A DNA stretch of 64,000 nt from Polyangium jinanense (GTDB lineage Bacteria; Myxococcota_A; Polyangia; Polyangiales; Polyangiaceae), in NCBI RefSeq assembly GCF_028435265.1, contig NZ_JAGTJK010000012.1:102900-166899 (forward strand), read 5' to 3'. Made by a program: the position numbers and the translations under genes. Position 1 is the first letter of the stretch; every line of letters begins with the position of its first letter. Under the pieces are notes generated by a model. The model was not told the DNA's origin, did not search any database, and saw only the letters and a program-made list of their open reading frames with translations. This document shows, piece after piece, positions 4,372-49,860 of the stretch.

Positions 4372-7300
4372 CGGCGTACGCGTCGCTCACCGAGAAGACG
4401 ATGAGCTCGCGGGCCTCGGCATTGCGACCGATCCAGGTGAGGCGCTCCTTGCCGGACGCCGGAGGCTGGTTCGTGTGGCCGCCAGCCCAGGCAATGCCCG
4501 TGAGCGCGATGTTGGGATCACCGACCGCGAGCAAGCCCGCGCGCGCACCCCAGCCGTTCACCGCGGTGTTGAGGGTCGAGGCGCGGTTGCCGATGTTGGC
4601 GATGACGTCGGTCGCGAGCGTGCGCACCTGCGGATCGAGGCTCGCCGGGAGCGCCTTGGCGACGCGCGCCGACGCATCGTTGAGCTTGGCCGGGTCGACA
4701 CCTTGCGGGGCAAACCCGGGGCTCAGCGCCTTGAGGTACGCGGCGAGCAGCGGCCAGAGGTCGATCGGCGCGGTGCGCGCGAAGGCCGTGGCATTCGCCT
4801 GGACGACCTTGAGCGCGCGGTGAACGAGGAACGTGCGGACAGCCTCGTTCGTCGCGGCCACGAGCGGCGCGCCGAGCACGATCGTCGGTGGATGCGCGCT
4901 CGCTGCGACGCACACCGAGCCGAGCGTGGACGACTGCAGCACCTTGAGATCCTCGATCCCGTAGGCGCGTGCGAGCTCCTTGATCTCCTCGGCGAGGTGC
5001 GCCTGCGGGGGCGGGAAGGGCGTCGCGCGGACCGACGTGACGTCGAACGGCACGGCCGTGTCGAGCATCGGCCCAGTGCGCTGCAGGAGGTCGCGGAACG
5101 CAGGCGTCATCACGTCGGGCGCGACCAGCTCGTCGAGCGAGAGGTCGCCGGCCGCCACGCCCGCGCCCGGAAGATCGACCGCGCCGCCGTCGAGGGCCGC
5201 CACGCTGCCACGCGCGATGCGCGCGACCTCGGGCCTTCCGCGTAGATCGGCGACGGTGGCGACGGTGCTGAAGAGGTACGGCTCGAAGCGGCCGGTGCCG
5301 AGCGCGCGGCGCGCGTCGGCGACGGCACGATCGAGCAGGACGTTCGCAGCCTGCGCCTGATCGGTGCGCTGGTAGAAGCTCGCGAGCGCGCCGAGCGCGA
5401 CGTCGTCCTTGGGCCAGGTCTTGCGCGCCTGGAGCAAGGTCTGCTCGGCCTTCTTGAGGTCGCCCATCGCCTCGTAGATCTCGGCGAGCTGCGTCGTGCG
5501 ACGGCACTTCGCCTCGGGCTCCTCGACGTTGTTGATGAGGATCGTCTGCTGCTCGAGGGCCTTCGCCGTGTCGCCGAGGTTCTTGTAGAGGTCGACGAGG
5601 CGCTCACGCGCGGGCTCGTTGTTCGCGAAGCGCTTCAAGACCTCCTGGTAGGAGAGCTCGGCGCGCTCGGCGTTCGGCAACGGTCCGTTGTAGAGGTCGC
5701 CGAGGCGCATGTAGAGCTCGGCCTGGCGCTCGGGCTCCGCGACGAGGCGCGCGAGCCGGATCCAGGCCTGCTCCGCGCCGCCCCAGTCGTCTTCCCTCGC
5801 GCAGACGTCGGCAAACGCCGTCAGAGCCTCGACGTGGTCGGGGTTCTGATCGAGCGCCGCCGCGAGAGCCTGCTTCGCCGCCGCCGCGTCGCCGACGTCG
5901 GCGAGCGCGCGGCCACGCAGGACCTCCATCTCGACACGCTCGGCCGGATCGGTGACGGCGTCGAGGCGACGTTCGAGGAGCGCGGCGAGCTCGGCCCGCG
6001 CGCCACTCGCGACGTAGATCGCCTGTAAGCGCTGGAAGACGTCGAGGTACGAGGGATCAACCGCGAAGACGCTCTCGAAGGCGCCACGCGCGCGCTCGGT
6101 CTCGCTCGTCTTGTCGGCCCAGAGGACCGCGGCGAGGTAGAGGTTGCGCACGCGCTCCTCGGCCGTCGCGCTGGTCTGCGCGGCAGCTTCGAGCGTGGTC
6201 GCAGCCCCGACGAAGTCGCCGCTCTGCTCGAGGGCGCGGGCACGTTCGAGGTGCACCACGAGGTGACCAGGCACGAGCTCGATCGCCTTTTCGAGGAGCT
6301 CGCGGGCCTTCTCGGTTTGCCCCGCACGCGTCGCGGACTCGGCAGCGCGCAGCGAGAGCGTGGCGATCTCGGAGGCGCGCTCGGTGCGGTTCGCGAGCTC
6401 GAGGTCGGCTTCGAGCGCCGTCGCCTCGTCGCCGCGCGCGCGAGCATGCGCCGCCGTTTGGCGGAGCGCCCAGAGCCCGCGAGGCTCGTTGCGATAGGCG
6501 ATCTCGACCGGCTCGCGCGTCTCGTCCCAGCCGTGGATGCGGAGGCGGAGGCGCGCGGAGAGGTGCGCATGCGCGATGGCCTCGGGGCCTTCGAGCGTCC
6601 TCGCGAGCGTGAAGACGACCGGCTCGAGCTCCTCGTCGCGGCCGCCCGCGATGAGGGCGCTCGCCACGCGGCGGAGCGTCGGCAGGTGCGTAGGCGTCTC
6701 TTCGAGGATCGTGCGGCGCCAGAGCAGGCCGCTCGCCGCGTCGCCACGGCCGATCTCGTCGAGCTCGGCGAGGCGCTCGTACGCCTGGAGCCGCTCGACG
6801 GAATCCTCCGTCGCGCGGGCGTACTGCAAGAGGCCGTCGACGAGATCACTCGTGCCATGGCCCGCGAGCGCGGCGCGGTACGCGCAGAGCGGCGCGAGGA
6901 GCGTCTCGCCCGCGGCGATGGCTTGCCGCGAGAGGGCCGCGGCCTTCTCGAGGTCGCCGTCGCGCTCGTACTCGAGCGCGGCTTCGAGCGAGAAGCGCGC
7001 GGCGTCGGAGCCCGTGGAGGCAGCCGCGCGCTCGGCACGCCAGGCCGCGCGATCCGCGGGGCGCTCCGGCGAGAGGCGCTCGTAGAGCTCGCGCAGGCCG
7101 ATGTCGTCGGGACGCGCCGTGAGCGCCTGCGCGAGCAGGCCCGCCGCATGCGCCGCGCCTTCCGGCGTGATGAGGGCTTCGCGCACGAAGTCGCGGGCCT
7201 GCTCGATCGGATCCTCGCTCGCCTGACGGCGGAGGTGGAGCCACTCGATGAGGCCGTCGCGATCGCCCACGCCGCGCGCCGTGCGCTCGCCGAGGTGCAC

Positions 7301-20017: not shown

Positions 20018-23000
20018 ATGTCTGGACTCGTATCTTCGTGTCCGAGAAAGGGAGCCGCGTCCGGTGTCGCGGCTCGTGATCGTATTCGGCGCGGCATCGG
20101 GGCCGCGCTCGTCGTCTGGCTCGTCGCGCTCGTCGCGTCGTGCTCCGCCCGCGATGCGGAGCTCTCGATGGGCGAGACCGCGCCTCCGGAGCCGGCGCCT
20201 CTGCGCGCGCCGGGGAAACGCACGCAGACGTCCGCTCCGTTTGATCTCGACGGGGTCATGCGGCAGGTCCATTTCGCTTTCCGGAAGGACGGCGAACGCT
20301 GGACGGGCGGGCACAGCACCTACGAGGTGCGCGCCTCGACCTCGGCCTTCGCGGTTCGGCCCGCGTCTACCGAGGCGCAGGGCGCGGAGGCCACGTTCGA
20401 AACCGTCTCGATGACCCGCGGCGCGGCCCGCAACCTTCGTGGCGTCGAAGGGCGCGTCGAGCAGGATGGCCACCTCGCCATCGCGCGGGGCGACGTCACC
20501 GAGCACCTGCGGAACGACGACGAGGGCGTCGAGCAGAGCTTCTCGTTCGAGGCGCAGCCGAAGGGCCGCGGCGATCTCGAAATCCGCGTCCGGGTCACGG
20601 GCCAGGCCTACGCGGGCGAGACCGCGGCGGGGCACCATTTCGTCGATCCGGCGACGGGCCTCGGGCTTCGGTATGGCCTGGCGACGTGGATCGACGGGCG
20701 CGGGGAACGGACGGCGGTCCCGGTGCGGTATGCCAAGGCCGGGGGCGAGCTCGTCTTGACCGTGCCCGCGGCCGTCGTGGAGGGCTCCGCTTACCCTGCG
20801 GTGCTCGACCCGACGATTGGCCCGGAGTTTGGCCTGGATGCCCCCATTTATTTCCCGGTGTCCGCAGCGCAGACGTACCCGCAGGTCGCCTTCGACGGGA
20901 CGAACTTTCTCGTTACCTGGCTCGACGCGCGGCAGATCAACAAAGTCGGCCTGCAAACGGTCGTGGGCGTCCGCGTCACGCCCGCGGGCGTGATCCTCGA
21001 CCCGGGGGGCTTCGAGATCGGAAACGCGGTACACTCCAACGGCCCAACCAAGGGGCCGGCCGTGGCCTTCACCGGCACCCATTACCTCGTGGTATGGGCG
21101 GGGGGCAGCGCCGAGGGCGGCGTCGTGGTAGGCGCGCGCGTCACGCCGGACGGCGCCGTGCTGGACCCGAAGAAATTGGGAAGCCAGACCGCCGGGGTAA
21201 GCGCGATCGACGTGGCCGCCGCGGGCGCGAATTCCCTTGTCGTCTGGGCGGCCGACGGGAAGGTGCAAGCTGTGCGCGTCGACGCGACGGGCGCGGCCGT
21301 CGGCAGTCAATTCCCCGTCCTCGCGAGCACGGCCAAGATCGAGTCCAACCCCGTGGTGGGGTCGAATGGAACCGACTTCCTCGTCGCGTGGGAAGACACG
21401 CGAAACAACGCCATCGCGGACATCTACGGCGCGCGCGTGACAGCGGCCGGGGCCGTGCTCGATCCCACTGGCTTTGCCATCTCGCTCGGGGCGCAGACCC
21501 AGCTCCTCCCCTCCGTCGCCTCCAATGGAACGGACTACTTCGTCGCCTGGGAAGACGGCAGGTGGGGAAACAAAGACATCTACGGCGCGCGGGTCTCGTC
21601 GTCCGGAGCCTTGCTGGATCCGATCGGCGTGCAGGTTTCCAAGAACGCGGGAACGCAGACGTCCCCCGCTGTCGCGTTCGACGGCAGCGGGTACGTCGTC
21701 GTCTGGAACGACAATCGCACGGGCGACTCCGACATCTGGCAGGGGCGGGTCTCGGTCGCCGGCGCTGCGCTCGATGGGACCGGGACCGCGGTCGCCGTCG
21801 CCACGAACCAGCAATCCCGGCCGAGCGTCGCGTGCGCGGGCGGCGCTTGTTTCGCTGCCTGGGAAGACCTGCGCGCCGGCGGCAATGCGGCCGCCTATGG
21901 TGCGCGCTTCACGGGGAGCACGGTCGACGATGCGGGCGGCCTGATGCTCCTCTCGGCCGCCAACCAGCAGGACGCGCCCTCCCTCGCCTACGACGGCACG
22001 AACTACCTGGTCGTCTGGCAGGACCTGCGCAACAACACGAACCTCGACATCTATGGCGCGCGGGTCTCGCCGGCCGGCGACGTGCTCGATCCCTCGGGCA
22101 TCCAGGTGTCGGCCGCGACCGGCGATCAATCCTCCCCGAAGGTCGTTTGGGGCGGCAGCCAGTACATGATCGTCTGGGAAGACAAGCGCTCGGGGACCTA
22201 TTACGACCTCTACGCCGCGCGCATGACCGCGGCCGGCGTCATCACCGATCCCAGCGGGATCCCCCTCGTCGCCGTCGCCAACCGGCACGAACAAGCCCCG
22301 CAGCTCGCGTTTGACGGCACGAATTACCTCGTCACCTGGCAGGACAATCGTTCGAGCGCCTCCTCCTTCAGCGTCTACGGCGCCCTGCTGACCCAGGCCG
22401 GCACGCTGCTCCAGCCGACCGGCTTCCAGATCGGATCGCTCGGCGTGGCCGGTTTCTCTCACGCCATGGCGTTCGGCGGGGGCCAATACTTCGTGGCATG
22501 GTATACTCCGGGTATCTTGGGCGGCGTGGGGGGCTTCCGAGGGGGGCGCGTCACGACCGCCGGGGCGCTCCTGGACAACACGGCGATCGTCATTCGTAAC
22601 ACCACGACCAACGGCCCCGTTGCGACGGCGTACGACGGGCTGAACTTCACCGTCGCGTACACCAGCACTCGCGTCTTTCTGGCCCGCGTGACGGGCGCCG
22701 GGGTCCTCATCGACACCCTCGACGTCGAGCTGACCCCCTCCAATATCTACAGCAGCCATCCCGCCATCGCCTTCGACGGGACCGATTGCCTCCTCGTCTG
22801 GCGTGACGGGAGGCATGGCAACAATGGTGCCATTTACGGCAGTTGGGTGACCGAGGCCGGCGACGTCCTCACCCCCGGCGGCCAGCCCTTCGCGGGCAAT
22901 GGCGCCATGTTCCACGGTCGCCCGGCGCTCGCGAGCGACGGCGCGGGCCACCTGCTCCTCGCTTATACGAAGGGCGATACCGCGCCTCCCTTCGGAAGCA

Positions 23001-23725
23001 ACCGCATCCGCGCCCGTCTCCTCACGACCTCCCAGCCCCTCGGCGCCGCCTGCTCCGCATCGACCGATTGCGCGAGCGGCTTCTGCGCCGACGGCGTCTG
23101 CTGCAACACGAGCTGCGGCGGCTCCGCGCCCGATTGCCAGGCCTGCGCGGCCGCGCTCGGCGCCTCCGCCGACGGCACCTGCACGCCGCTCACGGGCGCG
23201 ACCTGCAACGACGACAATGCCTGCACGCAAAGCGACACCTGCAATGCGGGCGCGTGCGTCGGCGCCGCTCCCGTCGTCTGCACGGCCCAGGACGAATGCC
23301 ACGATCCCGGCACCTGTGATCCGGCGACGGGCACCTGTGACGACCCGGCGAAGGCGGACGGCGAAGCCTGCGCGGGCGGCACCTGCATGGGCGGGGTTTG
23401 CCAGAGCAGCGGAGCCGGCACGGGCGGGAGTGGCGGCAATGGTGGGAGCGGCGGCAATGGTGGAAGCGGCGGGAGCGGCGGAAGCGGCGGAAGCAGTGAA
23501 TCCAGCTCCTCGGGCACCGGCGTGACCACGACCGGCGCGGGCGGTGGAAACGACCTGGCCCCGGGCGGCGGAGCCGACCAGGCCAAGGGCTCGGCCGTAT
23601 CCGTCGGCTGCCAGGCCGCGAATGCGCCTGCGACGGGCGCTCCGATCGCCGCGCTGATGCTCGCCGCCGGGCTCCTCGCTCGTCGACGCGTCACCTCGCG
23701 CCGCCGCGCCGCCTCTCTCGCCTGA
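20018..23725 (+). CDS. Cell-surface repeat protein with a MYXO-CTERM sorting signal (1235 aa)
   Basis: Signal/lipobox (LVASCS). ~13 copies of a ~55-aa unit (..DGTNYLVVWQD.R.....DIYGARVS.AG.VLDP.G..V). A Cys-rich module (CSASTDCASGFCADGVCCNTSC..). C-terminal GC..hydrophobic stretch..RRR tail typical of the MYXO-CTERM sorting signal. Confidence 0.75.
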   Translation: MSGLVSSCPRKGAASGVAARDRIRRGIGAALVVWLVALVASCSARDAELSMGETAPPEPAPLRAPGKRTQTSAPFDLDGVMRQVHFAFRKDGERWTGGHSTYEVRASTSAFAVRPASTEAQGAEATFETVSMTRGAARNLRGVEGRVEQDGHLAIARGDVTEHLRNDDEGVEQSFSFEAQPKGRGDLEIRVRVTGQAYAGETAAGHHFVDPATGLGLRYGLATWIDGRGERTAVPVRYAKAGGELVLTVPAAVVEGSAYPAVLDPTIGPEFGLDAPIYFPVSAAQTYPQVAFDGTNFLVTWLDARQINKVGLQTVVGVRVTPAGVILDPGGFEIGNAVHSNGPTKGPAVAFTGTHYLVVWAGGSAEGGVVVGARVTPDGAVLDPKKLGSQTAGVSAIDVAAAGANSLVVWAADGKVQAVRVDATGAAVGSQFPVLASTAKIESNPVVGSNGTDFLVAWEDTRNNAIADIYGARVTAAGAVLDPTGFAISLGAQTQLLPSVASNGTDYFVAWEDGRWGNKDIYGARVSSSGALLDPIGVQVSKNAGTQTSPAVAFDGSGYVVVWNDNRTGDSDIWQGRVSVAGAALDGTGTAVAVATNQQSRPSVACAGGACFAAWEDLRAGGNAAAYGARFTGSTVDDAGGLMLLSAANQQDAPSLAYDGTNYLVVWQDLRNNTNLDIYGARVSPAGDVLDPSGIQVSAATGDQSSPKVVWGGSQYMIVWEDKRSGTYYDLYAARMTAAGVITDPSGIPLVAVANRHEQAPQLAFDGTNYLVTWQDNRSSASSFSVYGALLTQAGTLLQPTGFQIGSLGVAGFSHAMAFGGGQYFVAWYTPGILGGVGGFRGGRVTTAGALLDNTAIVIRNTTTNGPVATAYDGLNFTVAYTSTRVFLARVTGAGVLIDTLDVELTPSNIYSSHPAIAFDGTDCLLVWRDGRHGNNGAIYGSWVTEAGDVLTPGGQPFAGNGAMFHGRPALASDGAGHLLLAYTKGDTAPPFGSNRIRARLLTTSQPLGAACSASTDCASGFCADGVCCNTSCGGSAPDCQACAAALGASADGTCTPLTGATCNDDNACTQSDTCNAGACVGAAPVVCTAQDECHDPGTCDPATGTCDDPAKADGEACAGGTCMGGVCQSSGAGTGGSGGNGGSGGNGGSGGSGGSGGSSESSSSGTGVTTTGAGGGNDLAPGGGADQAKGSAVSVGCQAANAPATGAPIAALMLAAGLLARRRVTSRRRAASLA

Positions 23726-23815: not shown

Positions 23816-25396
23816 ATGACCTCGCACCGTGCGCTCTCACCCTCGTCGAATGCTCGCCTTTGGGGCAACGGTGCCGCCCTGATGCTCGTGGGCGCTGCTG
23901 TGCGGTTTCTTCGGCTTGCGTTTCCGCTGCTCTTCGCTGTTTGCGTCTCGGTATGGCTCGTCGGGTGCGGGGCGGCGGGCGTGCGCGCGGAGGGATGGGC
24001 GCAGGAGCTCCAGGGCAAGAGCTTGTTTCGCGTCTGCCGGCGTCATCCCCGCGTCGGCCCGCATGCGCGCTACTGGTACGAGCTCGGGGACGGAGTGCAT
24101 CGACCGGCGTTCGAACCGCTCGAAAAGCTCCTGGAAAACCCTTCGGTCAAGGCCGTCTTCATCCATGACCCCCACGCGCCGCCCGAGAGCCGGAGGCTTT
24201 TGGGGCTCGCGTATCAGGATCTGCCCTGCGACAAGCCGCCGCCGCCGCCGCCGCCGCCGCCCGAGAAGATTGCGGCGGAAGAGCCGGAAGCCGGGCCGGC
24301 CAAGCGCACCACGGTCCGAACCGAGACGCGGACGTCGGCGATGAGGCCCTGCGAGAGGCCGCGCAAGAGGCCACCCGATCAGCGTTTCCTCGGGCAAACG
24401 GCGCCCACGCCCGCTCCGATGCCTGGGACGAGGGTGCCGTGTCCGCCGCCTCCTCCGGGGAAGACATACGAAGAACAGAAAGTCAACCTGGCGCGGAGGG
24501 ACGCCGAGGAGGAGGCGAGGCGCACGGGGGAGCGGATCGGGCGCGAGTGGGGGGCGACGCTCGGCAAGGCGGCTGGAGTGAAGGACTCCATCGACGTCAC
24601 GTATTTAGGAAACTTCGATTATGACATTCGGGACAAACCTGATGCCGAAGTCTTCGAAGTCATCCGGACCAATCTTGCCAAACAACTCGATGCAATCCCT
24701 GACCTGCCGACATACGACGACGAGCGGCTCGCCACGATCGCCTGGGAGGGCTTCCTCAAGGGGTATGGGCGAGGCTGGGCGGACGCCGAGCTGAAATTCG
24801 CGATCGTGAACGCCCTGGCGGACACCTTGTTGATGGTCGCCTCCGGGGGAGCGGCGGCCCTGGAGACCGTGGGGGCGAGGGTGCTGCGGGGCGCCCAGCA
24901 GAGGCTACGAAGTATGCCGGTGTTCCTGCCGAGCGCGGCGGGCGGACCGGGCGGGTTCTTGCGGCGGCCGAAGCTGCCGAGTCCGCCGGCCGCGAGCACG
25001 CCGAAGGCAGTGGCACCGCCCAGCGCGACGACAGTCACGACGACGACGAAGCCGGTCAGGGCGCCGAACGGCGCGGCGGGGCAGGCGGGGGCGCCGAAAA
25101 TTCGGAACCAGCACCTCGCGGGCAAGAACCACCCCAAGACCGGGGTGCCCTTCGATGCCGAGGGGTATCCGGATTTCAAGGCTGCTGGCGTCGTAAAAAG
25201 GGAGGTAAAGATCACCCAGACGGGGGACCGGCCTCATGATTACCGGCTCGCGAATGAGGCAGCGGGAGAGAAAGTAACGCCCAAAGACCATACGTGGCAC
25301 CATCACCAGGACGGGAAGACGATGCAGCTCGTGCCCACACAAATTCATGCGGACACAGGACATACCGGCGGGGTCGCAACGAAGGGGAGACCATGA
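23816..25396 (+). CDS. Lipoprotein polymorphic toxin with a C-terminal WHH-type HNH/EndoVII nuclease domain
   Basis: Lipobox LVGCGAAG. Pro-rich linkers (PPPPPPPPPPE, PCPPPPPGK). C-terminal ..KDHTWHHHQDGKTMQLVPTQIHADTGHTGG (WHH + H..H + GG). Its stop overlaps the immunity gene start by 1 nt spacing. Confidence 0.7.
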   Translation: MTSHRALSPSSNARLWGNGAALMLVGAAVRFLRLAFPLLFAVCVSVWLVGCGAAGVRAEGWAQELQGKSLFRVCRRHPRVGPHARYWYELGDGVHRPAFEPLEKLLENPSVKAVFIHDPHAPPESRRLLGLAYQDLPCDKPPPPPPPPPEKIAAEEPEAGPAKRTTVRTETRTSAMRPCERPRKRPPDQRFLGQTAPTPAPMPGTRVPCPPPPPGKTYEEQKVNLARRDAEEEARRTGERIGREWGATLGKAAGVKDSIDVTYLGNFDYDIRDKPDAEVFEVIRTNLAKQLDAIPDLPTYDDERLATIAWEGFLKGYGRGWADAELKFAIVNALADTLLMVASGGAAALETVGARVLRGAQQRLRSMPVFLPSAAGGPGGFLRRPKLPSPPAASTPKAVAPPSATTVTTTTKPVRAPNGAAGQAGAPKIRNQHLAGKNHPKTGVPFDAEGYPDFKAAGVVKREVKITQTGDRPHDYRLANEAAGEKVTPKDHTWHHHQDGKTMQLVPTQIHADTGHTGGVATKGRP

Positions 25397-25397
25397 C

Positions 25398-25916
25398 ATG
25401 GAAATCACAGACCGCGGAGAACCTTTGAGCGAGCAGGCCCTCCGAGAGTTGGAGGAGAAGCTCGGCGTGCGCCTGCCCGAACCCTATCGCCGGTTTTTGC
25501 AAGAGTACAATGGAGGCCGGCCAGACCCGGACATACTCGACATCGCCGGAGCCCCCTTCAAGGGCGCGGACGTCCACGTATTCTTTGGCCTAGGACGAGA
25601 GTACGAATCCGAGGATCTCTTGTGGAACAATGAGGACTGGAAGCGGCCCAGCTTGGGCAATGATGTCCTCGCAATCGCGTGTGATTCAGGCGGAAGCCTC
25701 TTCGGCATCGTCACCGAGGGGGAGCAGCGAGGCCGCGTGTACTATTTCGACTACTATGCGGACTGGGAGCCCTACTTCGTCGCCAGCGACTTCGACGCGT
25801 TCCTCCAGAAACTGCGAGCGTGGACGCCCGAGGAGCTAGCCGAGATCAAAAAGCTCGCGGCGGAGAACGCGGCGGCGAACGCCGCGGAGCTTGACCCCGA
25901 CAAACCTGCCGAGTAG
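25398..25916 (+). CDS. SUKH-1 (Smi1/Knr4) family immunity protein
   Basis: Hallmark LPEPYRRFLQEYNGG motif. 172 aa. Lies immediately downstream of the toxin (TGA-N-ATG). Confidence 0.8.
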   Translation: MEITDRGEPLSEQALRELEEKLGVRLPEPYRRFLQEYNGGRPDPDILDIAGAPFKGADVHVFFGLGREYESEDLLWNNEDWKRPSLGNDVLAIACDSGGSLFGIVTEGEQRGRVYYFDYYADWEPYFVASDFDAFLQKLRAWTPEELAEIKKLAAENAAANAAELDPDKPAE

Positions 25917-25932: not shown

Positions 25933-26616
25933 ATGGACGACCAACTCGACCTCGGTCCGGCGTACGCGCCGTCCGCCGCGTCGCCGCCCGCCGCGCCCCT
26001 CCCCAGCGTGGTCGCGCCCTACGAAAGGGTGGTGATGTTCTCTTTCCCGGTCGGCGTCGTGGTCGGGCTGGTTGTAGGCTCTGTGGAGTATCTCCGGTTC
26101 GCCTACGCGCTGAGCTTCTTCGATCCGGACAAGCTCCTCCCGTATTTCACGGGCATCGCCGTGCTCCGCGTGATAGGCCCCTCCAGCGCCATGATCGCCG
26201 CATCGATCACGGCGGTCCTCGTCCTTCATCGCGCCGGGCGCAGGGCAAGCGGACCCATCGAGATCGATCACGCGCGCGTGCTCCTCGTCCTGGCGGCGCT
26301 CCCACATCTCACGGTCGTGACGATGCCATTCTGCGTCCTCGGCGCCCTGCTGGTGTGGCTTGCAAGAACCGCGGGAGCCGTGACCGTGTTTTTGAAAGCC
26401 ATGCTCGACGTCGGGGTGATATGGACCCATTTCGCTTTCGGCCTGGCCTTCACCGCGCTCTGCGGGCTTTGGCTCACGTACCTGCTCCGCATCGGGGCAA
26501 ACTGGCTCACCACGAAGAAGCACGGCCTCGCCCTGAAGCTCTTCGTCGCATTCGCCTCGCTCGCCATACCCAATGCTGTTCTACGGGCTGTCCTTTCGCT
26601 CGTGGATCCGGTTTGA
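25933..26616 (+). CDS. Polytopic membrane protein, function unknown
   Basis: 5-6 hydrophobic helices. No recognizable catalytic motif. Start uncertain (alternative upstream ATG at 25891). Confidence 0.5.
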   Translation: MDDQLDLGPAYAPSAASPPAAPLPSVVAPYERVVMFSFPVGVVVGLVVGSVEYLRFAYALSFFDPDKLLPYFTGIAVLRVIGPSSAMIAASITAVLVLHRAGRRASGPIEIDHARVLLVLAALPHLTVVTMPFCVLGALLVWLARTAGAVTVFLKAMLDVGVIWTHFAFGLAFTALCGLWLTYLLRIGANWLTTKKHGLALKLFVAFASLAIPNAVLRAVLSLVDPV

Positions 26617-26619
26617 GCC

Positions 26620-26945
26620 CGCTCTTCCGGTTGCACACCTCAGCTACCCAGCGGGTCGTCCTCAGCGAGCCGGCAGGCCGTCCTCGTCCTTCCGCAGGCC
26701 GTCGTCACCTACGCGGCAAGCCGTCCTCGTCCTTCCGTAGGCCGTTCTCATCTACGCGGCAGGCCGTCCTCACCTAACCGGAAGGCCGTCCTCACCTACC
26801 CGGCAGGCCGTCCTCGTCCTCCCGCAGGCCGTCGCCACCTACCCGGCAGGCCATCCTCAGCCTCCGAGAGCCTGGCCTCAGCGAGGCAAAAGCCCATCCT
26901 CGTCCTCCCGCACCCCGTCCTCAACCTCCGCCCCTGACGAGATCG
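26620..26945. repeat. Non-coding tandem array of ~43-bp units (each built from two ~21-bp half-units sharing the 10-mer ggccgtcctc)
   Basis: cggcaggccgtcctcgtccttccgcaggccgtcgtcacctac-like units appear ~7 times head-to-tail with point variation. Confidence 0.75.
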
Positions 26946-27009: not shown

Positions 27010-27510
27010 ATGACGACGGATACGTTCTCTCCTTATGCTGGCCCTTATGATGTGACCCTCGCTGACGTGAAGGACGATCTCGTCGATCTCCCCGCTGGAT
27101 CCTCCAAGGGCTTCCGTGGCGTGCAGCCTGGCATCGAGGACGTCGTCGACGAGCTTGCCGGCGCCATTCCCGTGTTCGGTGATGCCGCGGGGATCCCCGC
27201 GAAGGTCTACGAGCGCTTCACCGTCGAGACGATGAGCATCGACGCCCTCACCAGGAAGGAGGCGCTCCTCGAAAAGATGCTCGAGGCCACCCGCGAGTCG
27301 AGGCGCCTCAAGGTCCACCAGCGCGAGAACACCATCGCCCAGATGGTCGACATCGCCAAGTCCACCGCCCAGCGCACCCGCAACAAGGGCATCCTCGCGC
27401 CCTTCGAGAAGACCGTCCGCTACAACGCCCAGACCGCGCTCAAGGCCGTGAAGACCCGCCGCAAGAACGAAGCCGCGAAAGCCGCGGCCACGTCAAGCCT
27501 CGAAAAGTAG
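27010..27510 (+). CDS. Hypothetical protein (166 aa), first gene of the T6SS-containing block
   Basis: GGAGG RBS 7 nt upstream. Predicted helical and basic C-terminus. No recognizable family. Confidence 0.5.
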   Translation: MTTDTFSPYAGPYDVTLADVKDDLVDLPAGSSKGFRGVQPGIEDVVDELAGAIPVFGDAAGIPAKVYERFTVETMSIDALTRKEALLEKMLEATRESRRLKVHQRENTIAQMVDIAKSTAQRTRNKGILAPFEKTVRYNAQTALKAVKTRRKNEAAKAAATSSLEK

Positions 27511-27692: not shown

Positions 27693-28190
27693 ATGGGTTC
27701 GTGTAGGCACGCTCGGGGCGGAGCGAGGGGCAGGGCGCGATGGATCGCAGCGCTTGCCCTGGTCTTGCCTTTGGGCCTCGGGTGCTCCGCGGGTCCCCCG
27801 CCGACCCGGTTTCTCGTCGAGGTCGCAATCACCGCCAAGGCGAACCGGAATTCGCCCGTCCCCATGACCCTCGTCGCGGTCCAGGACGCGAAGCTCTTCG
27901 ACCAGATCATCAAGCTCACCGCCAAGCAGTGGTACGAGCAGCGCGAGCAGATGCGCCGGGATTTCCCGAGCGGCACCGCGTTCACCGAGTGGGATTGGGA
28001 ATTCGTCCCGGGCCAGGCCCCACCACCCATGGTCGTCGAGGTCGACGGCAAGGCCCTCGGCGCCGTCATCTTTGCAAACTACCGCTCGCCCGGCGATCAT
28101 CGCTTTCGTATTGGCCCGCAACGCCGGATGCGGGTCGACCTCGGCGACGACGACCTCGTCGTGAGCCCCCTCGATGCTCCGGAGGATTGA
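27693..28190 (+). CDS. tssJ: Type VI secretion lipoprotein TssJ
   Basis: ~165 aa. Lipobox LGLGCS. The size and position immediately before tssK fit TssJ. Confidence 0.7.
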   Translation: MGSCRHARGGARGRARWIAALALVLPLGLGCSAGPPPTRFLVEVAITAKANRNSPVPMTLVAVQDAKLFDQIIKLTAKQWYEQREQMRRDFPSGTAFTEWDWEFVPGQAPPPMVVEVDGKALGAVIFANYRSPGDHRFRIGPQRRMRVDLGDDDLVVSPLDAPED

Positions 28191-41611: not shown

Positions 41612-44600
41612 ATGACGACTGCAGAACAGAGCCAGGGCGCCACGGAGAGCATTCCGAGCAAGCTCGGGAAGTTCGCCACGGAGCAGATCGACAAGGCCGA
41701 GGTCACGGTCACGAAGGGCGTCTCTACCGTCCGTGACTCCACGAACCAGATCATCAGCAAGGCCGAAGAGCAGATCCTCAAGCTCAACAAGGCCCTCTAC
41801 GAGACCAAGAACGGCATCTCGTCCGGCATCGACACGGCCATCAAGGAGACGGAAGGCCAGCTCAAAGGGATCACGCCCGAGCTCAAGAAGATGGGCGAGG
41901 ATGCGATCAAGACGGCCAAGGACAAACTCGACGGACTCGTCGACGAGGTCGAGGGCAAGCTCGAATCGCAAAAAGACTCGCTCGTCAAGACGGCGCAGGA
42001 TCAGATTCGGAACGCGGCCGATCAGGCGAAGGGCAAGATCGACGAGATCGGACAGCTCGGCGAGGATCAGGCGAAGAAGGTCCTCGATGCGGTCAAGACG
42101 CAGGCCGACACCGTCGATCAGAAGCTCGGCGATCTCGAGGGGCAGATCGACGGCAAGATCCAGGCGATCGGCGACGACGTGCGCGGCAAGTTCGAAGCGG
42201 CGCTCGCCAAGGTGCCGGATCACGACGGCGCGAAGGTCGAGATGTCGGCGAACGTCGACGCCGTCGTCGCGGAGCTGCGTAGTGCCACGAAGGACTCGAT
42301 CGAGCAGGCGCGCGAGACGCTCAAGTCGCTGGTCAAGCAGACCGACGACACGATCATGCAGACGATCGGCGACGTGCGGCGCGCGATCGGCGAGGTCCCC
42401 GCTCGCATCAACCAGTGTGCGCAGGACATCCTCGCGAAGGTCAATGACGCGATCCAGAAGACGATCGACGAGATCTCGAACCTCGCGCACGGGCTCGTGG
42501 CGCGCACGGCGGAGCTGCTCAACCAGGCGCTGCTCACGATCACGAGCACCGTCGACAAACTCCTCGCCGACGGCTTCGCGCTCGTGCGTGGGATCAAGGC
42601 GGATCTCGATCGTCTCCTCGACAAACTGCTCGAACAGATCCGGGATCTGACGCTCGGCACGCTGGAGGACGTCCGCAAGGCGGCGAACGAGCTACTCGGC
42701 ACGTTCGAGGCTGAATGCAAGAAGATCCTCCAGACGATGGAGGAGTCCGTCATCGGCTCGGTCGAGGAGCTCGGCGGCAAGATGAACGCCTCGATCAAGG
42801 CGCTCCAGGCCGACCTGAACCTCGATGCCGACAAGATCGTCCGGGACCTCGTGGCCGAGGGCGCGAAAGGGCACGACGACGCGCTCGCCGACTTCATCAG
42901 CGCTGGTTATTCCGAGGACACCTCGGTCATCCCCAAGATCCGGGCCAAGGGCGAGGCTGCGATCAAGCAGATCGAGGCCAAGACGAAGGCCCAAGGGGAG
43001 AAGCTGATCAAGGACTTCGAGATGCAGGCGACCCTGCTGAAGCCCAAGATCCAGGCGCAGGGTATCAAGGTCGTCGCGCAGATCGCCGCGCTCGGACCGA
43101 AGCTTGCGATGCAGGCGGTCCAGATTGCGACGAGCATCGCGTCGTCCATCAAGGACAAGGGCGAGGCGGTCAAGAAGACGTTCGAGGAGCTGCAAAAGAC
43201 GCTCGTCGACGCGATCACGAAGAAGATCCCCGATTACCTCGAAAACTGCAAGAAGCAGATCAAGGCCGCGGCCGATGCGCTCGTCGAGGCGGGCAAGACG
43301 TTCTACGAGAAGACGCTCGCCGACATCATGGGGGCGATCAAGGCGGCCGAGGCGCGGTTCAAGCAGCTTGCCTCGGAGATGAAGGACCTCATCGAGACGC
43401 AGGTCCTCGCGCTCGTGGCCTCCATTCGCAGGACGGTGGAGACGTCCATCCAGCGCTTCAAGGATCTCGGCGCCGCGTTCGAGGAAAAGACGAATGCGCT
43501 CGTCAACGACATCCCGGCGCGGCTCATCAAGCTGGAGCAGGTCGCGCGGCTCGCGGTCGAGCGCGAGATCACGCTGGCGAAGGGGCTCGCCAATGCGACG
43601 AAGGACGACATTCTCCTGAAGGCGCGGACGACGCTGTCGGAGATCAAAAAAGCGGCGTACGGGGTCCTCGGCGGCATCCGGGGCGATTTCGGCGCGGTGC
43701 AGGGATCGCTCGCGCTCATCGTCCCGGCGGGCGCGGGGCTCGACGCGGCGGGCGCGATCAACCTCGCGGTCTCGGGCGGGCTCGAAGGGATGATCGCGTC
43801 GGCGGCGAATGCGGCGCAGGCCGCGGTGACGGCGGGCGTGAATGCGGCCGAGGCCGTGAACAATGCAGCCGAGCAGGCGGCGGCCGCGATGAGCGCGGCT
43901 GGATTCGACGGCGCGGCGAAGTCATTGACGGACGTGCTCTCGCAGCAGATGGGCGAGGTGCGGACGGAGGGCGAGAAGGCCAAGAACGTCATTGCCGCGG
44001 CGAAGGAGAAGATGACGGCGGTCGCCAAGGAGGCGACGGACACCTGCACGCAGGCGGCGCAGGCGGCGCAGGCCGCGGCCGCGGAGGTCGTGGCGGCCGC
44101 GAATTCGACGGGCGACGCGATCAAGGCGTCGGCGGAGAACCTGACGAAGGGCCTCGAAAAGGCGAAGGACATCGTCAAGGATGCCGGCAAGGCCGCGATG
44201 CAATCGATGAAAGAGGCCCAGGACGTGCGCAAGGGAGGCGACGGCGCGCAAGCCGGCGCGGGTGCGCAGGCCAAGGCCGGCGGGGCGGATGGCGCGGCGG
44301 CGGGCGCGGATGCGGGCGGCGCGGATGGCTTGGCGGTGCCCGAGGGCGAGGCGGCGGCTCCGGAAGGGGAGGCGGCCGCGGCTCCGGGCGGCGCGGAGGC
44401 GGCTCCGGACGGCGCGGCGGCGGCTCCGGATGTCAAGGCAGCGGCTCCGGATGCCAAGGCGGCGGTTCCGGATGCCAAGGTGGCGGTTCCGGATGCCAAG
44501 GTGGCGGTTCCGGATGCCAAGGTGGCGGCTCCGGATGCCTCGAAATCGGCGCCGGATGTCCCGAAATCGGCGCCGGATGTCTCGAAACCGGAACTGGACG

Positions 44601-45289
44601 TCTCGAAACCGGAACCAGGCGCCGATGTAGCGGCGGTGGCCGCCAAGGTACCGGATCCGGCTGCCAAGGTAGCGGCTCCGGCCGCCAAGGTAGAGGTGCC
44701 GGCCGCCAAGGTAGAGGCGCCGGCCGCCAAGGTAGAGGCGCCGGCCGCCAAGGTAGAGGCGCCGGCCGCCAAGGTAGAAATTCCGGGCGCCCCGAAAGCG
44801 GCGCCGGCCGCCAAGGTAGAAATTCCGGCCGCCCCGAAGGCGGCGCCGGCCGCCAAGGTAGACATTCCGGCTGCCAAGGTAGACGTTCCGGCTGCCAAGG
44901 CGGTGCCCGGCGTGCCGGAAGGCAAGGCTCCGGCGCCCCCAGGCAAAGCTGCGATGCCGGAAGGCAAACCGCAGGTGCCCGAAGGCGGCATGCCCGGGGT
45001 GCCAAAAACCGGCGAAAAGCCCGCCTTTCCTCCCGCCCCCGCGCCTCAGGCCCCCGCGCCTCCCGCTCCGGCGGACGTGGCCCCCTTCGCGCCCGCGCCG
45101 AAGCCGCCGGCCGCGCCCGCCGTCCCTGCCGGCGCGAAACCCGCGCCCGCCGCGCCCGCCGCCCCCGTGATCCCTGCCGGCGCGAAACCCGCGCCCGCCG
45201 CGCCCGCGCCGCCCGCCACGCCCGCGGCCAAGCCCGTCGTTCCCGCCGCCCCCGGCAGCAAATGGCCTGGCAGCGGCAACAAGCCTTGA
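41612..45289 (+). CDS. Giant (1225 aa) all-helical repeat protein with C-terminal 7-aa tandem repeats and an Ala/Pro-rich tail. Function unknown. Located 53 bp after tssG
   Basis: No Cys/Trp-rich domains. K/E/D/A/Q-rich amphipathic 11/22-mer-like helices over ~1000 aa. Then (VPDAKVA)n and (PAAKVEA)n repeats, then a PAPAPKP-type tail. Weak GAGG RBS. Confidence 0.7.
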   Translation: MTTAEQSQGATESIPSKLGKFATEQIDKAEVTVTKGVSTVRDSTNQIISKAEEQILKLNKALYETKNGISSGIDTAIKETEGQLKGITPELKKMGEDAIKTAKDKLDGLVDEVEGKLESQKDSLVKTAQDQIRNAADQAKGKIDEIGQLGEDQAKKVLDAVKTQADTVDQKLGDLEGQIDGKIQAIGDDVRGKFEAALAKVPDHDGAKVEMSANVDAVVAELRSATKDSIEQARETLKSLVKQTDDTIMQTIGDVRRAIGEVPARINQCAQDILAKVNDAIQKTIDEISNLAHGLVARTAELLNQALLTITSTVDKLLADGFALVRGIKADLDRLLDKLLEQIRDLTLGTLEDVRKAANELLGTFEAECKKILQTMEESVIGSVEELGGKMNASIKALQADLNLDADKIVRDLVAEGAKGHDDALADFISAGYSEDTSVIPKIRAKGEAAIKQIEAKTKAQGEKLIKDFEMQATLLKPKIQAQGIKVVAQIAALGPKLAMQAVQIATSIASSIKDKGEAVKKTFEELQKTLVDAITKKIPDYLENCKKQIKAAADALVEAGKTFYEKTLADIMGAIKAAEARFKQLASEMKDLIETQVLALVASIRRTVETSIQRFKDLGAAFEEKTNALVNDIPARLIKLEQVARLAVEREITLAKGLANATKDDILLKARTTLSEIKKAAYGVLGGIRGDFGAVQGSLALIVPAGAGLDAAGAINLAVSGGLEGMIASAANAAQAAVTAGVNAAEAVNNAAEQAAAAMSAAGFDGAAKSLTDVLSQQMGEVRTEGEKAKNVIAAAKEKMTAVAKEATDTCTQAAQAAQAAAAEVVAAANSTGDAIKASAENLTKGLEKAKDIVKDAGKAAMQSMKEAQDVRKGGDGAQAGAGAQAKAGGADGAAAGADAGGADGLAVPEGEAAAPEGEAAAAPGGAEAAPDGAAAAPDVKAAAPDAKAAVPDAKVAVPDAKVAVPDAKVAAPDASKSAPDVPKSAPDVSKPELDVSKPEPGADVAAVAAKVPDPAAKVAAPAAKVEVPAAKVEAPAAKVEAPAAKVEAPAAKVEIPGAPKAAPAAKVEIPAAPKAAPAAKVDIPAAKVDVPAAKAVPGVPEGKAPAPPGKAAMPEGKPQVPEGGMPGVPKTGEKPAFPPAPAPQAPAPPAPADVAPFAPAPKPPAAPAVPAGAKPAPAAPAAPVIPAGAKPAPAAPAPPATPAAKPVVPAAPGSKWPGSGNKP
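44440..44900 (+). repeat. In-frame 21-bp tandem repeats (ggcggttccggatgccaaggt x4; gccggccgccaaggtagaggc x4 and variants)
   Basis: Direct reading of the sequence. The repeats encode (A/V)VPDAKV and APAAKVE heptads. Confidence 0.8.
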
Positions 45290-45688: not shown

Positions 45689-46441
45689 TCAGCCTCCCGC
45701 GAGCTTGTTCACGACCTTGTCGAAGAAGGACTCTTTTTTCTCCTCCTTCGCCTTCGGAATGCCCTTGTCGTCGTACTCGACCTCGCCGCGCTTCTCGCCG
45801 TCCTTGTACGTCGCCTTCGCCTTCAGCTTGCCCTGCACGTCGTAGCTGAACGCGTCGCCTTGCTTCTTGCCGTTGTCATAGATGGCGCGCTCGCGGACCT
45901 CGCCGTTCGGGAAGTACTCGATCACCTCCCCGTGCAGTTTGTCGGCCTTGTAGCTCGCTTTGCGCAGGGTGTTGCCCTTGCCGTCGAGGAACAAGGATTC
46001 CCCTTCGAGCTTGCCGTTCTTGTAGAACGACCGGACGACCTCGTTGCCCTGCTCGTCGAACGACATGAACGGGCCGTTCTGCTTGCCCTTCTCGAAATGC
46101 ATGAGCGTCCGGAGCCGGCCGTCGTCGTAGAGCCGCGTCGGCCCGTGCTGCTCGCCCTTCGCGAACGTGACGATCTGCGAGACCTTGCCGTTCTCGTCTA
46201 CGATCTTCGTCTCGCCGTGGAGCACGCCGTCCTGGAATGACGAACGCTCGACCTCGCGTCCTTCCGGATCGTACGTGATCGACAAACCGTGCAGCTTGCC
46301 GTTCTTGTAATTCGCCCGGTGCGCGATCTGCTTTTCGGTCTCCCCGTACTGGACGAACTCGCCGTGGAGCACGCCGTCTTCCATCTCGAACCGGGAGATC
46401 AGCTTGCCGTTCTCGTCGCGCTCTTCGTGGTCGGTCGGCAT
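45689..46441 (-). CDS. MORN-variant (YwqK-family) repeat protein
   Basis: Eight repeats of Y/F-K-N/D-G-K-x-H/Q-G-x-x-x-x-Y/F-D-x-x-G. Confidence 0.8.
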   Translation of the reverse strand: MPTDHEERDENGKLISRFEMEDGVLHGEFVQYGETEKQIAHRANYKNGKLHGLSITYDPEGREVERSSFQDGVLHGETKIVDENGKVSQIVTFAKGEQHGPTRLYDDGRLRTLMHFEKGKQNGPFMSFDEQGNEVVRSFYKNGKLEGESLFLDGKGNTLRKASYKADKLHGEVIEYFPNGEVRERAIYDNGKKQGDAFSYDVQGKLKAKATYKDGEKRGEVEYDDKGIPKAKEEKKESFFDKVVNKLAGG

Positions 46442-48452: not shown

Positions 48453-48570
48453 GGATCTTCAGACGAGAGCGTACCGGGCTTCTCGGGTTTTCGGCAAGAG
48501 GCTTGATCTCCGGCGCACACTCATCGATGATCGAGCGCGCTGTGGTGTGCTTTCAGGAAGAGACCTGCCG

Positions 48571-49860
48571 ATGACGTTCTTCCGAACGGGCCATGGTCTC
48601 TTCCAGTTCGGGAGGCCGAAGCGCCTCGACAGGCACGGGATCCTCGCCTTTCTGCGCAGCGTCGCGACCGATCGTGGAGGCATGCTGGAGCTTCGGCGCA
48701 TCCTCGCCGACGAGCTGCATCGCACGTCGATCCACAACATGCGCGACGAGCTCGTGATCGAGCAGCTCGCGGACCGTTACCTGCGCGGCTCGCTCACGCT
48801 CGTCCACGTGCGCCCGCTCGACATCGGGATCGAGCTCGAGGGCTTCCTCGTCGAAGGCGCGGACGCCACGCCTTTGACCGGCCCGAAGAACGAGGCCGGC
48901 GACCTGCGCCCCGCGCCCGAGGTCCCACCCGAATATCCGGTCCTCGCGCGTGTCGAGTCCGATCAGATCATCGACTCCACGCTGAAGCTCGTCGCGAAAC
49001 TCGGCGATCTGCTCTTCGGGGCGTTTGGCCTGCAAAAACGTCCCTCGACGCTCGCGAAGGAGCTCGTGCTGCTCGCCGCCGAAGAGGCGAGCGGCGTGAA
49101 GCTCGCGAACACGAAGGTCGATCTCGATCTCGGGTTGCAACTGCATCCGCAGGGCAAGATCCTGCTGCCCGATCCGCAAGTGAAGGACGCGTACGTCGCC
49201 GCGGCGGCCGAGATCGCGGCGGGGCCGCGTCCGGCGGCAAAGGGTCTCATCGATTTGATGTGGCCGCTCACGCGGGTCGACACGAACCGCCGCTTCGACA
49301 ATCCCGTCGGGGCCGGGCCGGTGAAGAGCGATCAAAGCGACGGGAAGAAGGGCCCCGAGGCCGCGCTGGATTGGGTCGAAATCGAGCTCGTCGACGACGG
49401 CGATCCGCCGAAGCCCTACGCCGGCGCGCGGTATCGAATCGAGCTCGAGGGCGGCAAGGTGATCGAGGGGACGCTCGACGACGACGGCAAGGCGCGCGTC
49501 GATGGGATTCCGTCGGGCAGCGGGACCGTCACGTTCCCGGACATCGACGCCGGGTTTTGGGGGACGAACGGCGCAGGCAGCGCAGGCGCCGCCGCGCCGC
49601 CGCCTCCGTCTTCGTCGTCGTCCTCCGCGGTCTCCGCGGACGAGGCGTGGGTCGAGATCGAGCTCGTCGACGACGACGACCCGCCGAAGCCCCGCGCCGG
49701 CGCGCGATATCGTATCGAGCTCGAGGGCGGCAAGGTGGTCGAGGGGACGCTCGACGACCAAGGGAAAGCGCGCGTCGACGGGATTCCGTCGGGCAGCGGG
49801 ACCGTCACGTTCCCGGATATCGATGGCAGCACGTGGGGGCCGGGAGAACGAGGCACATGA
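48571..49860 (+). CDS. Hypothetical protein (429 aa) with two C-terminal copies of a ~55-aa repeat (W.EIELVDD.DPPKP.AGARYRIELEGGKV.EGTLDD.GKARVDGIPSGSGTVTFPDID)
   Basis: AGGAAG RBS. The internal duplication is exact at many positions. No catalytic motif recognised. Divergent from vgrG. Confidence 0.55.
   Translation: MTFFRTGHGLFQFGRPKRLDRHGILAFLRSVATDRGGMLELRRILADELHRTSIHNMRDELVIEQLADRYLRGSLTLVHVRPLDIGIELEGFLVEGADATPLTGPKNEAGDLRPAPEVPPEYPVLARVESDQIIDSTLKLVAKLGDLLFGAFGLQKRPSTLAKELVLLAAEEASGVKLANTKVDLDLGLQLHPQGKILLPDPQVKDAYVAAAAEIAAGPRPAAKGLIDLMWPLTRVDTNRRFDNPVGAGPVKSDQSDGKKGPEAALDWVEIELVDDGDPPKPYAGARYRIELEGGKVIEGTLDDDGKARVDGIPSGSGTVTFPDIDAGFWGTNGAGSAGAAAPPPPSSSSSSAVSADEAWVEIELVDDDDPPKPRAGARYRIELEGGKVVEGTLDDQGKARVDGIPSGSGTVTFPDIDGSTWGPGERGT

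Follow-up and report, generated by a model that had tools for sequence, protein, structure and literature searches.

A predicted polymorphic lipoprotein toxin and its immunity gene in Polyangium jinanense, with a SitA-like plan and a linked MlaE-like membrane gene

Introduction

Kin discrimination in myxobacteria is best understood through the SitA toxins. These are outer-membrane lipoproteins in which a family-specific escort domain of about 375 amino acids (aa) precedes a modular C-terminal nuclease; transfer between cells is mediated by TraAB-dependent outer-membrane exchange, and the escort domain sets the pathway of entry into the cytoplasm of the target cell (PMC5562445, PMC8546572). The SitA1/SitI1 pair combines a WHH/Colicin-DNase nuclease with a SUKH immunity protein (PMC5562445), the published homologues of SitA1, SitA2 and SitA3 examined all belong to the Cystobacterineae (PMC5562445, supplementary file 1), and genomes with SitA toxins carry from 15 to more than 80 loci each (PMC10433427). 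Here we describe a gene for a predicted lipoprotein toxin, with its immunity gene and a linked membrane gene, in a stretch of 64,000 nucleotides of the myxobacterium Polyangium jinanense (contig NZ_JAGTJK010000012.1, positions 102,900 to 166,899), referred to below as the window; coordinates are those of the window unless another locus is named. An earlier note, made by reading the letters of the window, had described a two-gene, SitA/SitI-like pair lying close to a type VI secretion system (T6SS).

The genes traAB have been reported in Sorangium, Byssovorax, Aetherobacter and Minicystis and are absent from Chondromyces crocatus, Polyangium lying outside that survey; in Sorangium, no outer-membrane exchange was detected (PMC6372800). 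By sequence, the Polyangium toxin is built like SitA, yet appears to stand outside the described SitA families, and "SitA-like" is used here as an architectural and functional label, since membership of the class hinges on TraAB-dependent delivery. Two features are new: an N-terminus of two modules, one of which is shared with Rhs toxins, and a linked, fast-evolving gene for an MlaE-like protein. Current annotations describe the genes of the cassette only as 'HNH endonuclease', 'hypothetical protein' and 'ABC transporter permease'.

Results

Layout and export signal of the toxin

The toxin gene and the two genes that follow it very probably constitute a chromosomal, three-gene toxin-immunity cassette of a polymorphic lipoprotein family restricted to the Polyangiaceae. 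The toxin gene, defined from the list of open reading frames (ORFs) and from Pfam matches to WHH and Colicin-DNase, extends from 23816 to 25396 on the forward strand, stop codon included, and encodes 526 aa. In a word-based search with the N-terminal 425 aa as query, its best match was a P. jinanense 'HNH endonuclease' (P0001, 99% identical). The protein begins with a type II signal peptide (23816-23968), recognised from sequence and hydropathy, in which a basic n-region and a 16-residue hydrophobic stretch are followed by W-L-V-G-C51-G-A-A-G, the lipobox L48-V49-G50-C51 being encoded at 23957-23968. This lipobox is kept as L-[LVF]-[GA]-C in all full-length relatives in the family alignment, and lipoprotein-type signals also begin many distant relatives, including many proteins that carry the first N-terminal module described below. 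Lys at position +2 or Ala at position +7 is a signal for inner-membrane retention (PMC5562445); in the toxin these positions are Gly and Arg, so neither signal is present. Export by the twin-arginine pathway was considered and discarded, a twin-arginine motif occurring only in some paralogues and not in the window copy.

Two linkers divide the mature protein. The first (aa 141-215, 24236-24460) is rich in Pro, Thr and Arg (33% Pro) and disordered, with a predicted local distance difference test score (pLDDT) below 50 in the AlphaFold (AF2) model; it starts with nine Pro, contains C179 and C209, and accounts for the poly-Pro runs of the toxin at aa 141-149 and aa 210-214. The second, the junction linker (aa 386-430, 24971-25105), holds the motif TTV(T/K)TTT(K/R)PV..PNG.AAGQA, with TTVTTTT at 25028-25048. 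This motif spans aa 405-425 and is nearly invariant across the family alignment, with T405, T406 and T409-411 as invariant columns. Mean pLDDT over the whole model is 72. A scan for promoters and terminators gave matches no more numerous than expected by chance.

An N-terminal region of two separable modules

Judged by sequence comparison, the N-terminal ~425 aa define an undescribed family restricted to the Polyangiaceae. A profile of this region was searched at full HMMER sensitivity against 1.84 billion representative proteins, hits being counted at E <= 1e-3, and gave 69 hits whose matches split into two parts, named here module A and module B. Thirty of the hits were looked up: all those with an organism name were Polyangium, Sorangium or Polyangiaceae metagenome-assembled genomes (MAGs), and about half were nameless metagenome proteins. 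The word-based search with the N-terminal 425 aa returned 22 proteins, all organism-named ones being from Polyangium. With one genome per species scanned, 12 family loci were obtained, which all belong to Polyangium isolates or to a MAG of this genus, at 2-6 copies per genome. The NCBIfam scan of the N-terminal region gave no match.

Module A (aa 52-140, 23969-24235, forward strand) is a small alpha/beta domain with conserved C74 and C138 and the motifs VCRRHPxV...W.Y and DPHAPPESRRLLG; a confident alpha/beta fold is modelled over aa ~61-145 (pLDDT 90-96). It was matched alone (profile positions ~25-165) in many lipoproteins from Polyangiaceae or unnamed metagenome contigs. A distant lipoprotein relative in Polyangium sp. 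15x6 (L012, 5094-6470) is 32% identical over module A and has the lipobox LSGC, but its C-terminus differs. Together with P0083, P0089, P0093 and P0105 it stands for a second sub-family, in which module A alone is shared.

Module B (aa 216-385, 24461-24970, forward strand) is a helical pre-toxin domain characterised by IPDLPTYDDE..A..GFLKGYG...RLRSMPVFLPSAAGGPGGFLRR, with helices over aa 218-325 (pLDDT 75-96) and a moderately hydrophobic helix at aa 328-349. It was also matched alone, at profile positions 198-395, and neither module gave a specific match in the PDB. In Sorangium, module B occurs in Rhs proteins immediately behind the DPxGM motif closing the Rhs core, with the same PPPPGK(D/T)(Y/F) lead-in, and the genes concerned sit in loci of the SpvB/TcdB_mid type. 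These SpvB-TcdB_mid-RHS proteins thus resemble the Polyangium toxin in placing the lead-in and module B between the delivery part and the toxic tip, and differ from it in lacking a lipobox, module A and a nearby MlaE-like gene. Since module B lies at this position in two unrelated delivery platforms, it would act after delivery and independently of the platform, and its probable role is to bring the nuclease across the inner membrane from the periplasm. The CdiA-CT cytoplasm-entry domains and the translocation domains of colicins likewise are conserved, delivery-independent segments between a delivery part and a variable nuclease tip. Comparison with the PDB nevertheless revealed no sequence or fold relationship between these systems and the Polyangium toxin.

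In public annotations, the family members P0016-P0019 appear as short proteins of 278-331 aa. The interpretation of truncated members as orphan modules was rejected for at least one of them: at the P. jinanense locus L017 (3835-5436), the sequence ahead of the annotated start of P0018 still encodes the full N-terminus (aa 1-425, 88.6% identity), so that this truncation is an annotation artefact.

A WHH nuclease tip followed by a SUKH immunity gene

The toxin ends in a WHH/Colicin-DNase domain (aa 446-522, 25151-25381, forward strand), which scores 56.9 bits against WHH (PF14414, cut-off 25.1) and 51.4 bits against Colicin-DNase (PF12639, cut-off 25). The W-H-H motif is present (W494-H495-H496-H497, at 25295-25306), together with downstream His residues, and the fold resembles that of a solved WHH nuclease of the HNH-EndoVII type. 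On these sequence grounds the tip is a WHH nuclease and a predicted DNase. The solved homologue is RhsP, an Rhs-family toxin of Vibrio parahaemolyticus (RhsP-WHH/RhsPI, PDB 8bd1, 8h8a/b), which is delivered by an Rhs shell, whereas the Polyangium tip is attached to a lipoprotein N-terminus. The WHH domain is also 59.6% identical to the ends of HINT-type polymorphic toxins on Streptomyces plasmids; a plasmid or mobile-element origin was rejected, since the plasmid records match the WHH tip only.

Close relatives of the tip (43-83% identity) also occur as stand-alone proteins of 69-174 aa (P0123-P0150). They come from Polyangium sp. 15x6, a Polyangiaceae MAG, Corallococcus and many metagenomes, and could be either orphan toxin modules or pieces derived from short contigs. 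The search with the WHH tip returned only such short stand-alone WHH proteins, SitA1 not being among them.

The immunity gene (25398-25916, forward strand) encodes a SUKH-1/SMI1_KNR4 protein of 172 aa, identified by Pfam and by its sequence (SMI1_KNR4, 2e-20, 74.1 bits against a cut-off of 25.4; SUKH_6, 7e-19), that contains LPEPYRRFLQEYNGG. Its ATG at 25398 lies 1 nt after the stop codon of the toxin gene (TGA, 25394-25396), with GGGGAG just upstream; an in-frame ATG at 25347 was dismissed as an artefact of mechanical ORF listing. The protein is 100% identical to its counterpart at the P. jinanense locus L014 and 72-84% identical to those of other WHH cassettes, and a sequence search of the PDB with the window protein gave no match.

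Swapping of the tip together with its immunity gene

Among full-length members of the family, the N-terminal ~400 aa are 60-99% identical and conservation stops at the TTVTTTT junction, after which the tips belong to classes unrelated to one another (WHH, HNH/HNH_5, Tox-GHH, Tox-REase-9 and unassigned). The C-terminal domains of 51 scanned profile hits include AHH (15/51), MafB19 deaminase, CdiA_C, HNH and Tox-REase-9. The boundaries of the exchange were located by comparing the window, by nucleotide identity, with the paralogues L006, L007 and L016, which carry other tips. Identity was 85-97% over the N-terminal coding part, about 40% from ~25100 to ~25880 and 80-98% over the membrane gene, and was lost after ~26600. 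Because identity collapses at ~25100 and recovers at ~25880, the tip and the immunity gene represent a cassette between two homology arms. As far as sequence comparison can tell, they form a swapped module with the TTVTTTT junction as its left boundary and the MlaE-like gene as its right flank. A short conserved junction that marks the swap point is also found in CdiA-CT and colicin systems, the VENN motif of CdiA being the parallel of TTVTTTT.

Traces of such exchanges are found at several loci. The paralogue L016 retains a fossil SUKH 3' end before its membrane gene, though its present tip is of the HNH class. At one orthologous site, where the cassette or cassettes lie between DUF3160 and a P450-ADH-MacAB group, P. 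fumosum carries three units, P. jinanense a GHH tip and P. sorediatum an HNH tip; at another, between a 239-aa gene and a Ser/Thr kinase, strain 15x6 carries WHH, and P. fumosum and P. mundeleinium both carry HNH. Variation is not limited to the tip: module B includes an internal patch (aa 250-300, 24563-24715, forward strand) with several allelic types among paralogues, whose GC content at third codon positions (GC3) is 0.50-0.60 and whose nucleotide identity is 47-58% to most paralogues and 96% to copy 3 of L001. At locus L014, collinearity with the window extends from the upstream 1235-aa gene through TssK, with 98.6-100% protein identity.

The three-unit tandem of P. fumosum (L001/L013, 4286-12793) consists of WHH with SUKH, HNH with a DUF4265/RraB-like immunity gene, and WHH with SUKH and the membrane gene. 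A 25-aa remnant of the start of the membrane gene follows the first of these units (6325-6399).

These analyses bear out in full what the earlier note had read from the letters. The lipobox LVGCGAAG was found at C51 and the poly-Pro linkers at the two runs given above; the profile search proposed for the nuclease and the SUKH-1 match 1 nt past the toxin stop both passed their Pfam cut-offs. The lower GC3 that it saw in the tip and immunity gene, as expected of a swapped polymorphic C-terminal module, agrees with the measured values, which fall from 0.81 (toxin aa 1-425) to 0.69 (aa 426-526) and 0.77 (immunity gene), neighbouring genes being at 0.83-0.94, and with the paralogue comparison.

A third, MlaE-like gene linked to the cassette

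The pair of genes described earlier has a third member. This gene (25933-26616, forward strand) encodes a protein of 227 aa with about six membrane helices, probably a distant relative of MlaE. According to tblastn, it follows the immunity gene at nearly every fetched locus, whatever the toxin tip; three additional loci keep the order toxin, immunity gene, membrane gene, and all copies of the membrane gene examined sit directly after a toxin-immunity unit. The toxin loci L002, L005 and L010 have no membrane gene, or only a remnant of it. Relatives of the protein form 19 clusters, all organism-named ones from Polyangium and the remainder from unnamed metagenome contigs.

The family profile aligns with Escherichia coli MlaE of the MlaFEDB phospholipid transporter (PDB 6xbd_G, E 3.1e-4, ~150 residues, MlaE residues 52-216), which also has several membrane helices, and a PF02405 match was precomputed for 11 of the 19 relatives. 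The window protein itself had no Pfam hit at E <= 0.01 and matched TIGR00056 of NCBIfam only at E 0.81, and its AF2 model was unusable (pLDDT 47.7). Unlike MlaE, this third gene is found beside toxin cassettes only, evolves fast, is sub-threshold in Pfam and NCBIfam and lacks Mla partners: no ATPase (MlaF), MCE (MlaD) or MlaB-type gene is attached to the cassette at annotated loci. The ABC-transporter genes at the P450 site belong to a separate MacAB-type operon ~3.5 kb downstream.

Ratios of nonsynonymous to synonymous substitution rates (dN/dS) were computed as pooled Nei-Gojobori values, which are rough estimates, as pairs are not independent, genes recombine and GC3 is constrained. The membrane gene reached 0.88 (pooled, nine copies), as against 0.43 for the N-terminal region of the toxin, 0.40 for the SUKH gene and 0.33 for the WHH tip, and the contrast is still meaningful, since the same caveats affect the comparison genes. 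Within the membrane protein, the ratio was ~2.1 at aa 51-90 (bootstrap 95% interval 1.2-4.4), ~1.5 at aa 155-185 (0.86-3.0) and 0.37 at aa 181-226. The first two segments look as if they may be under diversifying selection, and they possibly face the periplasm. Co-evolution of the membrane protein with a block of the toxin was examined and rejected, the correlations ranging from r -0.14 to 0.09.

The neighbouring T6SS and other surroundings of the cassette

A full T6SS cluster begins about 1.1-1.8 kb downstream; the earlier note had placed the pair ~1.6 kb upstream of a T6SS. A lipoprotein ORF taken as TssJ (27693-28190) is followed by TssK, which starts at 28174, DotU/TssL, TssM, TssA, TssB, TssC, Hcp, TssE, TssF and TssG, up to 41558; VgrG lies at 46452-48452 on the reverse strand, and no ClpV-type ATPase was found among the window ORFs scanned. 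T6SS genes adjoin the cassette only in the window and in its same-species twin L014. Neither TssJ nor TssK turned up within 10 kb at L001-L012, in other genomes, or at L015-L018, searched likewise; other cassette loci adjoin P450/ADH/MacAB genes or a Ser/Thr kinase. Proximity to the T6SS, on account of which the earlier note had left the delivery route open, is confined to a single species and gives no clue to delivery. According to Pfam and NCBIfam, neither the toxin nor its neighbours contain a PAAR, MIX, FIX, Rhs or VgrG part, nor is there an adaptor gene (DUF4123, DUF1795, DUF2169).

Several genes around VgrG are candidate T6SS cargo: a MORN-repeat protein (45689-46441, reverse strand), a 1225-aa coiled-coil protein (41612-45289), a 469-aa protein (48451-49860) and a 1295-aa protein (50099-53986) with peptidoglycan-binding and M74-like murein endopeptidase domains.

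Other elements lie close to the cassette. The 394-nt gap that separates the membrane gene from the next ORF, immediately before the T6SS cluster, is filled by a 22-nt repeat in about 12 head-to-tail copies (26638-26923; consensus CCTCAnCnACCCGGCAGGCCGT), a 43-nt period also being scored (75-82% matches); the repeat core GGCAGGCCGTCCTC has 10 matches with <=2 mismatches in the window versus 1.7 expected. The array was rejected as a part of the cassette, as among the fetched loci it is present only in L014 and absent from the loci of other genomes. The next ORF, orf166 (27010-27510, forward strand), lies between the cassette and the T6SS and encodes a 166-aa protein that matched neither Pfam nor NCBIfam and lacks a signal peptide. 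A 46% identical homologue adjoins two divergent toxin copies in P. fumosum (L010, 8595-9059, reverse strand), and since this is the only other locus with such a homologue near toxin copies, the link was considered too weak for orf166 to be counted in the cassette. Directly upstream of the toxin, a 1235-aa protein (20018-23725, forward strand) shows weak matches to beta-propeller repeats, Cys-rich repeats and a GGSGGN low-complexity run, and its C-terminus (Gly-Cys, a hydrophobic helix and an Arg-rich tail) resembles a MYXO-CTERM sorting signal. Similar Cys-rich repeats are found in a 2092-aa ORF at 57347-63625.

Discussion

A route for the toxin from producer to neighbour can be proposed. The protein would leave the cytoplasm by Sec and receive a lipid at Cys51; as it lacks Lys+2, it would then be sorted to the outer membrane. 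In the producer and its clonemates, family knowledge of SUKH proteins suggests that the cytoplasmic immunity protein would neutralise the WHH DNase. Transfer would follow a route that moves outer-membrane lipoproteins between Polyangium cells, SitA-like exchange being the leading candidate; in the recipient, module B would take the nuclease from the periplasm to the cytoplasm, where the WHH domain would degrade DNA unless the matching SUKH protein were present. Comparison of loci shows that recombination exchanges the tip and immunity gene between the TTVTTTT junction and the MlaE-like gene, and indicates that the neighbouring T6SS is not the delivery device. We regard the whole chain, including contact-dependent transfer of an outer-membrane lipoprotein toxin between Polyangium cells, as an even call, and delivery specifically by TraAB-type exchange as a more tentative proposal.

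The SitA/SitI-like label proposed earlier holds in part. The general plan is shared: a lipobox without Lys+2, an N-terminal family region of about 375-425 aa, a nuclease at the C-terminus that is polymorphic and modular and has its immunity gene directly downstream, and several paralogues per genome. SitA1/SitI1 offers a precedent for the same combination of WHH/Colicin-DNase with SUKH (PMC5562445, PMC8546572). Judged indirectly, through database searches, no homology was found to the six described escort families (SitA1/2, 3, 4, 5, 6 and 7): NCBIfam gave no match, and all organism-named proteins among the profile hits looked up were from the Polyangiaceae. The N-terminus of the Polyangium toxin can be split into two modules, of which Rhs toxins share one. 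No sitB precedes the toxin gene, a conserved MlaE-like gene lies downstream, and no mobile element was seen beside the cassette. The host also differs, as no SitA family or exchange has been reported in Polyangium (Sorangiineae) in the literature examined.

Vesicle or surface delivery is the main rival to exchange. The same cassette would then encode a vesicle-borne or surface-displayed toxin, reaching its target by vesicle fusion or direct contact without TraAB, with module A as a receptor-binding or targeting domain. A lipobox and outer-membrane sorting would suit vesicle cargo equally, the N-terminal family is, by database searches, unrelated to the SitA families, module A is modelled as a separate, well-folded, Cys-containing domain, and the literature offers both the failure to detect exchange in Sorangium and the absence of traAB from Chondromyces crocatus (PMC6372800). 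Against this, the same survey places traAB in Sorangium, Byssovorax, Aetherobacter and Minicystis, and the plan of the toxin is nearest to the sole known myxobacterial system that moves lipoprotein nucleases (PMC5562445, PMC8546572). We consider this alternative rather unlikely, yet well above the others. A nuclease for predation or DNA scavenging, placed on the outer membrane or on vesicles with SUKH protecting the producer only before export, is improbable: lytic proteins are released by myxobacteria, which live as predators (PMC10433427), a nuclease anchored as a lipoprotein could work extracellularly and the producer cytoplasm would need an immunity gene in any case, but the swapping of tip and immunity gene at orthologous loci, the paralogues and the conserved junction better fit an arms race between relatives, the tips include deaminases, tRNase-type CdiA_C and REase toxins that act inside cells, and module B is common to Rhs toxins.

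Delivery of the toxin as a cargo effector by the neighbouring T6SS seems highly improbable. The short distance to the cluster speaks for it, module B is common to Rhs proteins, some of which are T6SS effectors, and the solved WHH homologue RhsP is itself an Rhs-family protein, which we take to be a T6SS effector. The signal peptide and lipobox are nevertheless family-wide, whereas T6SS effectors load from the cytoplasm, and the cluster has its own VgrG with adjoining candidate effectors. The Rhs proteins of Sorangium that carry module B are encoded in SpvB/TcdB-type, not T6SS, loci. Given the conserved lipoprotein signal, the lack of any T6SS effector part or adaptor and the lack of TssJ/TssK at the other cassette loci searched, the adjacency appears incidental, and the cassette is quite probably independent of the T6SS.

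Several points weigh against SitA-like transfer as set out above. Toxicity, immunity, lipidation and transfer are all inferred. No Cystobacterineae protein was present among the 30 N-terminal profile hits looked up and, as the N-terminus has no detectable relative in that group, SitA biology is not simply transferable to Polyangium. The sorting rule for lipoproteins derives from M. xanthus, the traAB and exchange findings in Chondromyces and Sorangium cited above point the same way, and the Polyangium genomes scanned hold about 2-6 copies of the toxin, not the dozens of SitA genomes (PMC10433427). The role proposed for module B draws on domain sharing only, with no specific structural match, and the variation of the membrane protein tracks no part of the toxin.

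One further reading gives the membrane gene a part. The cassette could be an unrecognised three-component kin-discrimination system of the Polyangiaceae, in which the MlaE-like protein serves as a polymorphic gate, either a receptor or an entry-exclusion factor; we think this quite unlikely. In such a system, the lipid-anchored toxin may reach the outer membrane of the neighbour and then its inner membrane along a lipid-handling route. If true, this would add a second, membrane-level layer of self/non-self recognition above SUKH immunity, and would give the first candidate cargo of outer-membrane exchange in the Sorangiineae.

Several Polyangiaceae carry traAB, exchange has never been shown in them and no cargo is known, and the Polyangium family described here is a candidate for such cargo. 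The cassette also offers leads of its own: a defined swap junction, module B as a way to study the passage of nucleases through the inner membrane, and a strictly linked, fast-evolving MlaE-like gene.

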